Positions 3,697-6,600 of a stretch of 64,000 nucleotides of DNA are shown piece by piece; the stretch's first letter is position 1, and each line of letters starts with the position of its first letter. The position numbers were made by a program, and so were the translations under genes. The notes beneath the pieces are model-generated. The model made no database searches, was not told where the DNA came from, and saw nothing but the letters and a program-made list of their open reading frames with translations. Origin of the DNA: Escherichia coli (lineage in GTDB: Bacteria; Pseudomonadota; Gammaproteobacteria; Enterobacterales; Enterobacteriaceae); assembly GCF_045037415.1 (NCBI RefSeq), contig NZ_CP173438.1, one strand, 5' to 3'.

Positions 3697-6600
3697 ATGG
3701 GAAAAGGTGGCGGTAAGGCACACACGCCTCGTGAGGCGAAGGATAATCTCAAATCCACGCAGATGATGAGTGTGATTGATGCGATTGGTGAGGGACCGAT
3801 AGAAGGTCCGGTGAAGGGACTGCAGAGTATTCTGGTGAACAAAACCCCACTGACGGACACGGACGGCAATCCCGTGATACACGGTGTGACGGCGGTCTGG
3901 CGCGCCGGGGAGCAGGAGCAGACACCACCGGAAGGCTTTGAGTCCTCCGGAGCTGAAACCGGACTGGGCGTGGAAGTGACGAAGGCAAAACCGGTGACGC
4001 GCACCATTACGTCCGCGAACATTGACCGCCTGCGGGTTACCTTCGGGGTGCAGTCACTGGTGGAGACCACCTCAAAGGGTGACCGTAACCCGGCATCCGT
4101 CCGCCTGCTGATTCAGTTACAGCGTAACGGTAACTGGGTGACAGAAAAGGACGTCACCATTAACGGCAAGACCACCTCACAGTTCCTGGCCTCGGTGATT
4201 CTGGATAATCTGCCTCCCCGGCCCTTTAACATCCGGATGGTCAGGGAGACGGCGGACAGCACCACGGACCAGCTGCAGAATAAGACGCTGTGGTCGTCAT
4301 ACACCGAAATCATCGATGTGAAACAGTGCTACCCGAACACGGCCATTGTGGGGCTGCAGGTGGATGCGGAGCAGTTCGGCGGCCAGCAGATGACGGTGAA
4401 CTACCATATCCGCGGTCGCATCATCCAGGTGCCGTCAAACTATGACCCGGAAAAACGCACGTACAGTGGTATCTGGGACGGCAGTCTGAAACCGGCATAC
4501 AGCAACAACCCGGCCTGGTGCCTGTGGGACATGCTGACTCACCCGCGCTACGGCATGGGAAAACGTCTGGGGCGGCGGATGTGGACAAGTGGGCGCTGTA
4601 TGCCATCGGGCAGTACTGCGACCAGACGGTCCCGGATGGTTTCGGGGGGACCGAGCCGCGGATGACCTTTAATGCGTACCTGGCACAACAGCGTAAGGCG
4701 TGGGACGTTCTCAGTGATTTCTGCTCTGCGATGCGCTGTATGCCGGTATGGAACGGTCAGACGCTGACGTTCGTTCAGGACCGCCCGTCGGATGTGGTGT
4801 GGCCGTACACCAACAGCGATGTGGTGGTGGATGATAACGGCGTGGGATTCCGCTACAGCTTCAGTGCCCTGAAGGACCGGCACACGGCGGTGGAGGTGAA
4901 TTACACCGACCCGCAGAACGGCTGGCAGACCTCCACGGAACTGGTGGAAGACCCGGAAGCCATACTGCGCTACGGACGCAACCTGCTGAAGATGGACGCG
5001 TTCGGCTGTACCAGCCGCGGTCAGGCCCACCGTGCCGGACTGTGGGTGATAAAGACCGAACTGCTGGAAACGCAGACGGTGGATTTCACGCTCGGGTTCT
5101 CAGGGGCTGCGGCACACACCCGGTGACATTATTGAAATCTGTGATAATGACTATGCCGGGACCCTGACCGGCGGACGTGTCCTGTCCATTGATGCTGCCA
5201 CCCGCACCCTGACGCTGGACCGTGAGGTTACCCTGCCGGAGACAGGTACATCGGCGGTGAACCTGATTAACGGCAGCGGTAAGCCGGTGAGTGTGGACAT
5301 CACCGCACACCCCGCGCCGGACCGGATACAGGTCAGTACCCTGCCTGATGGTGTGGAGACATACGGGGTGTGGGGACTCTCCCTGCCGTCACTGCGCCGT
5401 CGCCTGTTCCGCTGTGTCTCCATCCGGGAAAACACGGACGGCACCTTTGCCATCACGGCGGTGCAGCACGTACCGGAAAAAGAAGCCATCGTGGATAACG
5501 GTGCCCGCTTTGAGCCGCAGTCAGGTTCCCTGAACAGCGTCATCCCACCGGCAGTGCAGCACCTGACGGTGGAGGTGAGCGCAGCTGACGGCCAGTATCT
5601 GGCGCAGGCGAAATGGGACACGCCGCGGGTGGTGAAGGGTGTGTGCTTCAGTCTGCGCCTGACCAGTGGTAAGGGAACGGATGCCAGACTGGTGACCACC
5701 GCCATCACCGCAGACACGGAGCACCGTTTCAGCGGCCTGCCGCTCGGGGAATACACCCTGACGGTGCGGGCGATAAACAGCTATGGCCAGCAGGGTGAAC
5801 CTGCCACCACCACCTTCCGGATTACCGCACCGGCAGCACCGTCGCGGATTGAGCTGACGCCGGGCTATTTTCAGATAACCGCAACGCCACATCTTGCCGT
5901 TTATGACCCGACGGTACAGTTTGAGTTCTGGTTCTCGGAAAAGCGGATTGCGGATATCAGGCAGGTTGAAACCGCAGCCCGCTATCTTGGCTCGGCGCTG
6001 TACTGGATAGCTGCCAGTATCAATATCAAACCGGGCCATGATTATTATTTTTATATCCGCAGTGTGAATACTGTTGGCAAATCGGCATTCGTGGAGGCTG
6101 TCGGTCGGGCGAGCGATGATGCGGAAGGTTACCTGGATTTTTTCAAAGGAGAAATCGGGAAAACACATCTGGCCCAGGAGCTGTGGACGCAGATTGATAA
6201 CGGTCAGCTTGCGCCGGACCTGGCTGAAATCAGGACGTCCATTACGAATGTCAGCAATGAAATCACGCAGACCGTCAATAAAAAACTGGAAAATCAGAGT
6301 GCGGCAATCCAGCAGATACAGAAAGTTCAGGTTGATACAAATAATAACCTGAACAGCATGTGGGCCGTGAAACTGCAGCAGATGCAGGACGGACGCCTTT
6401 ATATTGCGGGTATCGGTGCCGGTATTGAGAATACGCCAGCAGGAATGCAGAGTCAGGTGCTGCTGGCGGCAGACAGGATTGCGATGATTAATCCTGCGAA
6501 TGGCAACACAAAGCCGATGTTTGTTGGTCAGGGCGATCAGATATTTATGAATGAAGTGTTCCTGAAATATCTGACGGCTCCCACCATTACCAGCGGCGGT

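Follow-up and report, generated by a model that had tools for sequence, protein, structure and literature searches.

Two one-base frameshifts in gene J of an Escherichia coli ST131 prophage: an inherited deletion and a likely consensus artefact at a GGTCTC site

The stretch of Escherichia coli DNA analysed here (64,000 nucleotides, called the window throughout) carries a lambdoid prophage whose host specificity gene, J, is interrupted by two one-base frameshifts lying 525 nt apart. Comparison with other genomes makes it highly probable that the two have different origins. The first, the loss of one G from a run of five, is an inherited lesion; the second, an extra T, would be a false base linked to a GGTCTC motif, the recognition site of Eco31I. 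The true sequence would then read GGGG at the first site and a single T at the second.

A dead J in the prophage of an ST131 sub-lineage is, of course, biologically minor. It is also nothing new, as public annotation already flags it. Of wider consequence, one-base indels at GGTCTC appear to create false pseudogenes (J, rlmA, yciQ, manZ), and the deposited E. coli and ST131 assemblies affected form a recognisable group. Pseudogene counts, cgMLST alleles and the inference that a phage is defective would all mislead if drawn from such assemblies.

The prophage and its lineage

The window comes from a strain of E. coli ST131 with a lambdoid prophage integrated at yecE. A 901-nt query laid across both lesions found matches in 4430 of 5426 complete E. 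coli genomes, and the best 40 of these 4430 include several labelled O25b:H4-ST131. By the annotation of relatives, the prophage adjoins yecD and lies inside a truncated hypothetical gene. In EC958, the ST131 reference, yecD and yecE are uninterrupted and no prophage is found there, which makes that strain unusable as a reference for J.

One genome carrying the same prophage at yecD/yecE is THO-003, which matches the window over the whole 64 kb except for five differences, two SNPs and three one-base indels. Its J, annotated as "gpJ, frameshifted" (JLF28_RS10945), has the same GGGG deletion. It differs from the J of the window in having a single T at the second site, and so has one frameshift rather than two.

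In another genome, A1.S1.126, there are lambdoid prophages both at ompW/trp and at yecD, and their J genes are near-identical. The left and right halves of these prophages (loci L001/L005 and L007) are swapped relative to positions 1-14500 of the window and to THO-003. The swap points to an inversion of the chromosome in which the two prophages recombined downstream of J.

The reading frames of gene J

Within the prophage, J follows the tape measure gene and M-, L-, K- and I-like tail genes, and precedes lom and a tail fibre gene. This is the place of J in a lambdoid tail module, and it is seen both in the annotation of near-identical loci and in the open reading frames of the window. The coordinates of the features discussed are collected in Table 1.

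Table 1. Features of gene J and of GGTCTC/GAGACC sites in the window
Feature	Position	Strand	Basis or remark
Lambda-J-like tail tip attachment / host specificity gene	3697..7170	+	ORFs, translation; pseudogene as assembled
Unaltered GGTCTC/GAGACC site	4063..4068	-	One of four unaltered
GGGG where intact J has GGGGG; -1 deletion after codon 291	4569..4572	+	Comparison with relatives
About 175 J codons legible solely in the shifted frame	4573..5096	+	Inside ORF 4518..5126
First in-frame stop after the -1 shift	4663..4665	+	Translation of the window
GGTTCTC: Eco31I site GGTCTC, T duplicated at 5097/5098	5095..5101	+	Comparison with relatives
GAGAACC in manZ; all other genomes GAGAGACC; on the minus strand, GGTCTCTC to GGTTCTC	63567..63573	-	Comparison with THO-003

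Translation in the frame of the start codon (frame 1 from 3697, by the ORF listing) matches J for 291 codons, ending in ...HPRYGMGKRLG, and gives nonsense thereafter. The middle part of J is read in another frame, in an ORF that contains ...AADVDKWALYAIGQYC...TVDFTLG. Frame 1 is then resumed from about 5098 and runs for some 690 more codons to the J stop codon, at 7168-7170 (+). A preliminary description of this DNA, made from the sequence alone, had J re-framed in its middle, and the sizes found here for the three parts (291, about 176 and about 690 codons) confirm this.

When one G is added and one T is removed in silico, a single J ORF of 1157 aa results. All six GpJ families of Pfam are found on this repaired protein (FNIII-A_GpJ, Phage-tail_3, Ig_J, Ig_J_second, Phage_Tail_Tip and Ig_GpJ_C, with E from 1e-31 to 1e-41), and most of the Phage-tail_3 domain falls in the stretch between the two lesions. 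The match to the lambda J structure 8iyk has E = 0. More generally, repaired J aligns with lambda gpJ (8iyk, 8k35) over residues 1-834, carries the same domains and holds the same place in the order of tail genes. It differs from lambda gpJ in its C-terminal receptor-binding part (residues 865-1157), which is closer to 9wca ("A8 gpJ"), and in the interruption of its frame, which makes a pseudogene of it. Thus, by sequence, domains and position, J belongs to the lambda gpJ family, as a non-functional member.

The two frameshifts had been called compensating. This they are not, as seven stops in the start-codon frame lie between them (at 4663, 4765, 4870, 4897, 4987, 5047 and 5050), and the pair therefore restores nothing functionally. 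The shifted stretch is not open in that frame, being stopped from 4663 to 5052, and the uninterrupted frame that a functional J would need was likewise sought and not found. J as assembled gives a product of 322 aa, in which 291 residues of J are followed by 31 out-of-frame residues. The view that the assembled gene is broken stands, since translation ends at 4665 after these 322 codons. So does the proposal that the prophage is unable to make infective tails, to the extent that this should be the expected result of so truncated a J. No interpretation is warranted, however, for the "re-framing" of 175 codons in the window.

The missing G

At the first frame switch the window reads CTGGGGCGG, and an intact J requires CTGGGGGCGG. 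A missing G had been reported at about 4570-4575; the loss is now placed in the G run at 4569-4572, which is GGGGG in intact relatives.

The distribution of the two forms was examined with probes of 61 nt, matched exactly against complete E. coli genomes. The GGGG form was found in 43 records, the GGGGG form in 1209; a longer GGGGG probe that included the flanking SNP of this copy matched 419 records exactly. The 43 genomes with GGGG come from many laboratories and countries. Further, 39 of the best 40 matches to the 901-nt query have GGGG together with a single T at the second site, and PGAP labels the gene "gpJ, frameshifted" in near-identical genomes.

The two J genes of A1.S1.126 offer a comparison within one assembly. 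Here, the J of copy 1 has GGGG and the J of copy 2 has GGGGG. About 45 nt to either side of the G run are the same in the two paralogs, the nearest copy-specific SNP being at 4521. A systematic error would, of course, affect both paralogs, and the split therefore argues that the loss of the G is real. On these comparisons, the missing G is a real, inherited -1 deletion in this prophage, and J is probably a pseudogene in its true state too.

The extra T

The second frame switch is a different matter. The window reads GGGTTCTCAGG where relatives, and an intact J, have GGGTCTCAGG. The preliminary description had put an extra T at about 5097, restoring the frame, and had set both lesions in homopolymers. 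The position and the base were right, and the first lesion does lie in a G run. The second, however, does not lie in a T run; a single T within GGTCTC has become TT. A plain homopolymer error was for this reason rejected at the second site.

The TT form was matched exactly by probes in 19 records, compared with 925 for the form with a single T. These 19 are A1.S1.126 (in both paralogs), two assemblies of a Taiwanese series, one Thai isolate and 15 assemblies named "Esc". The TT is present on GGGG and GGGGG J paralogs alike, and the copy-specific SNPs at 5644 and 5824 have not been carried along with it. This speaks against the T having been acquired from the second J paralog by gene conversion; in the window, both SNPs, which lie between 5097 and 7208, keep the window's own alleles.

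Other sources of the T were considered and set aside. A search for a quasi-palindrome or a nearby repeat that might have templated it gave trivial 7-8-mers only, with no inverted copy. A slippery heptamer was sought at 5097 by reading the sequence, and is absent. Nor does the TT form a linked haplotype, or share an error, with the run of six T between J and lom (T6, 7203-7208). With 1674 exact records, T6 at 7208 is the common allele, and THO-003, with T5, is the exception. The extra T in J is most likely, by these comparisons, an artefact of the consensus that is absent from the DNA.

GGTCTC sites in the window

With T6 set aside, the indels private to the window (relative to THO-003) number two, at 5097/5098 in J and at 63570 in manZ. 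Each affects the T/C step of a GGTCTC motif. The manZ gene (63367-64000 of the window, minus strand) is out of frame as assembled, with one base missing inside a GAGACC/GGTCTC motif. This form of manZ was sought in 5416 complete E. coli genomes and none of them has it; the deletion is thus private to the window, and the idea that it is shared with the assemblies that carry TT was dropped. It is probably an artefact of the kind proposed for the T in J.

The motif had been noted at the J site before the manZ site was examined. The chance that a second private indel would also land in the motif is about 6e-4 to 8e-4, below 1e-3, as only six GGTCTC/GAGACC sites occur in the 64 kb. Four of the six are unaltered (that listed in Table 1 and those at 45000, 61183 and 62546), which means that the effect is stochastic or depends on context.

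These sites have a known meaning in ST131. Strain EC958 carries Eco31I methyltransferases, 100% of its GAGACC sites are m6A-modified, and m5C is predicted at GGT(C)TC (Forde et al., 2015, PMC4659465). Eco31I modifies both strands at adjacent positions, as GGT-m5C-TC and GAG-m6A-CC, and ST131 clades A and C both possess the system (PMC4659465). From its lineage (ST131 clade A or C), the source strain of the window is inferred to carry Eco31I as well, the genes being on GI-leuX, outside the window.

In J, the extra T sits precisely at the step between the T opposite m6A and the m5C of GGTCTC. Written with the altered base in brackets, the two indels are GGT[T]CTC in J and GGT[-]TCTC on the minus strand in manZ, each at or next to the modified bases. 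This agrees in two ways with the Eco31I system (also EcoMI; type IIS) described in PMC4659465: its recognition sequence GGTCTC/GAGACC is the location of both private indels, and the bases that it modifies, the first C of GGTCTC and the A opposite the preceding T, are those duplicated or lost. The difference is one of role; here, the system is a presumed cause of miscalls, exerted from elsewhere in the genome.

Methylation-linked errors have been described in Oxford Nanopore assemblies of bacteria (Lohde et al., 2024, PMC11610573). Like the changes considered here, those errors are tied to motifs, stochastic between isolates and specific to sequencing series, and they produce false differences and pseudogenes. 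They are, however, A/G and T/C base ambiguities, that is, purine for purine or pyrimidine for pyrimidine, and the text of that paper does not mention indels or insertions. Here, a single base is gained or lost, at a site where both strands carry a modification. A literature search for indel or nanopore errors at GGTCTC found no such report, and a search on the sequencing platform of the A1.S1 series found nothing specific.

The same change in other assemblies

If the T is an artefact of its motif, the same change might be seen at unlinked copies of GGTCTC. Such changes are indeed found. Over 50 kb of core genome, A1.S1.126 differs from THO-003 by three indels, two of which are GGTCTC to GGTTCTC; one of these is in rlmA (annotated as "frameshifted") and the other is intergenic. 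Over 41.7 kb, Esc3 differs from A1.S1.126 by a single indel, GAGACC to GAGAACC, which leaves yciQ "frameshifted". A further unlinked copy of the motif is affected in manZ of the window.

Probes taken from these loci (A1.S1.126 rlmA, L011 46713-46773; Esc3 yciQ, L012 46369-46429) found the altered rlmA in 23 records, with about 5400 lacking it, and the altered yciQ in 8. Records with +T at J (19), rlmA (23) and yciQ (8) come largely from the same few sequencing series. C25, APEC20/16, 98212 and 98215 are affected records outside ST131. The members are not the same, however, from one locus to the next. Within the Esc series, +T is found at J in assemblies 2, 3, 5, 6, 7, 8, 12, 13, 15, 20, 22, 23, 26, 27 and 28, at rlmA in 7, 9, 10, 14, 19, 20, 21, 26, 28 and 30, and at yciQ in 3, 5, 6, 10, 15 and 22. 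Within the Taiwanese series, it is found at J in 446 and 447, at rlmA in 439, 446, 447 and 463, and at yciQ in 439 and 463. Only one T stands at the J site in A1.S1.18, an assembly whose name points to the series of A1.S1.126.

Repeated sequencing of a single strain seems to lie behind the Esc assemblies, whose chromosomes differ in length by a few tens of bases. The distribution of +T follows sequencing series and not phylogeny, and it varies even among these re-sequenced isolates. Clonal descent cannot explain such a mosaic; a stochastic miscall at the motif can. Thus, the RefSeq calls of rlmA and yciQ as "frameshifted" look like false pseudogenes, on the evidence of these comparisons.

Competing explanations

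The preliminary description had treated the two lesions as alike, and had noted that both would fit sequencing error. This now seems to hold for one of them only. Error is the probable source of the extra T; it is not that of the missing G, for which the 43 genomes, the split between paralogs and the PGAP call all argue that the loss is real.

The favoured history runs as follows. An ancestor of an ST131 sub-lineage would have lost one G from the GGGGG run in the J of its prophage. The resulting -1 frameshift would truncate J after residue 291, ahead of Phage-tail_3 and of all distal parts, including the end that binds the receptor. This would leave the prophage with no functional tail tip of its own, and tail-defective unless another J complemented it. 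The extra T would have come from outside biology, as a stochastic one-base error of the consensus at a doubly methylated Eco31I site, in assemblies that are presumably long-read nanopore assemblies. The window would in truth carry GGGG and a single T, as does the rest of its lineage.

Both frameshifts might instead be real, a neutral +T having arisen in a J already dead and having happened to bring the downstream part back into frame. Once a gene is dead, a further indel is unconstrained and has a roughly even chance of restoring the frame, and the orthologous copy in A1.S1.126 also has GGGG and TT. However, the same +T sits on the GGGGG paralog in several assemblies, forms a mosaic among re-sequenced isolates of one strain, and recurs as an identical motif change, in the same series, in the core genes rlmA and yciQ, which it disrupts. 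As the other private indel of the window is in another GGTCTC, and as 39 of the best 40 lineage matches have the single T, this account is unlikely. Less likely again is the view that GGTCTC sites are true hot spots for one-base indels in cells that carry Eco31I, through the methyltransferase or through restriction and repair, with the changes in J, manZ, rlmA and yciQ all real. Here, hundreds of ST131 genomes from other projects are unchanged (925 against 19 at J, about 5400 against 23 at rlmA), and the affected records group by sequencing series, not by lineage. Eco31I, further, cleaves outside its recognition site. The very strong association with the motif is what the hot-spot view would expect, and heterogeneity in cultures is compatible with data at the level of assemblies, but the view would demand implausible rates of frameshift in core genes of the type of rlmA, yciQ, manZ and trpE.

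It is very improbable that both lesions are errors of assembly and that J is intact in the cell. A G homopolymer is, to be sure, a classic context for error, and the same assembly shows apparent errors elsewhere. Yet 43 genomes of unrelated projects match the GGGG form exactly, among them THO-003, which shows no motif errors in the regions compared, and the paralogs of A1.S1.126 read GGGG and GGGGG within identical flanks of about 45 nt. Least credible of all is recoding, programmed or tolerated, in which full-length J would be made by ribosomes that slip twice, first at the G run and then at the T site. The sequence CUG GGG C would let the P-site tRNA-Gly re-pair in the -1 frame, and a low level of slippage is conceivable there. 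The second site, however, has no slippery sequence and is probably absent from the DNA, and the shifted layout is not conserved, relatives being overwhelmingly continuous (1209 and 925 records, against 43 and 19). Thus, the account in which an inherited loss of G is joined by a motif-linked false T is by far the best supported.

Other features of the window and of related assemblies

The prophage and its surroundings show several further features. At the prophage end, the minus strand (12619-14518) encodes a UG17-class reverse transcriptase (PADLOC RT_UG17, E = 8e-159) and, after it, an RT-associated SLATT protein (E = 3e-57); the pair is a candidate anti-phage module of the DRT type. Between the genes for the tail fibre and for tail fibre assembly lies a gene (11011-11913, plus strand) for a protein of 300 aa, macro-domain-containing according to relatives, for which a PADLOC search gave no match.

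Two more genes are disrupted according to the annotation of near-identical relatives: a DinI-like one at the prophage end (about 14760-14980) by a frameshift, and mntP (about 61960-62525) by an internal stop. Both lesions are probably real, since they are common to THO-003 and A1.S1.126. An IS1397 element (IS3 family) lies between ruvB and znuB at about 22370-23720, as it does in THO-003 and A1.S1.126.

One-base differences are also seen outside GGTCTC. A run of C within J (6785-6789) is CCCCC in the window, THO-003 and Esc3, and CCCC in both copies of A1.S1.126, in 446 and in UID2309220027. This is a true homopolymer, and its CCCC form is a recurrent one-base difference restricted to suspect assemblies (loci L001, L007, L009 and L010). 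In A1.S1.126, an extra C causes a frameshift in yobB (L011, about 27700; window, about 42180). The window and THO-003 have CACATC at this place, and the extra C creates CAGCATC, which matches CANCATC, the EcoMVII motif of ST131.
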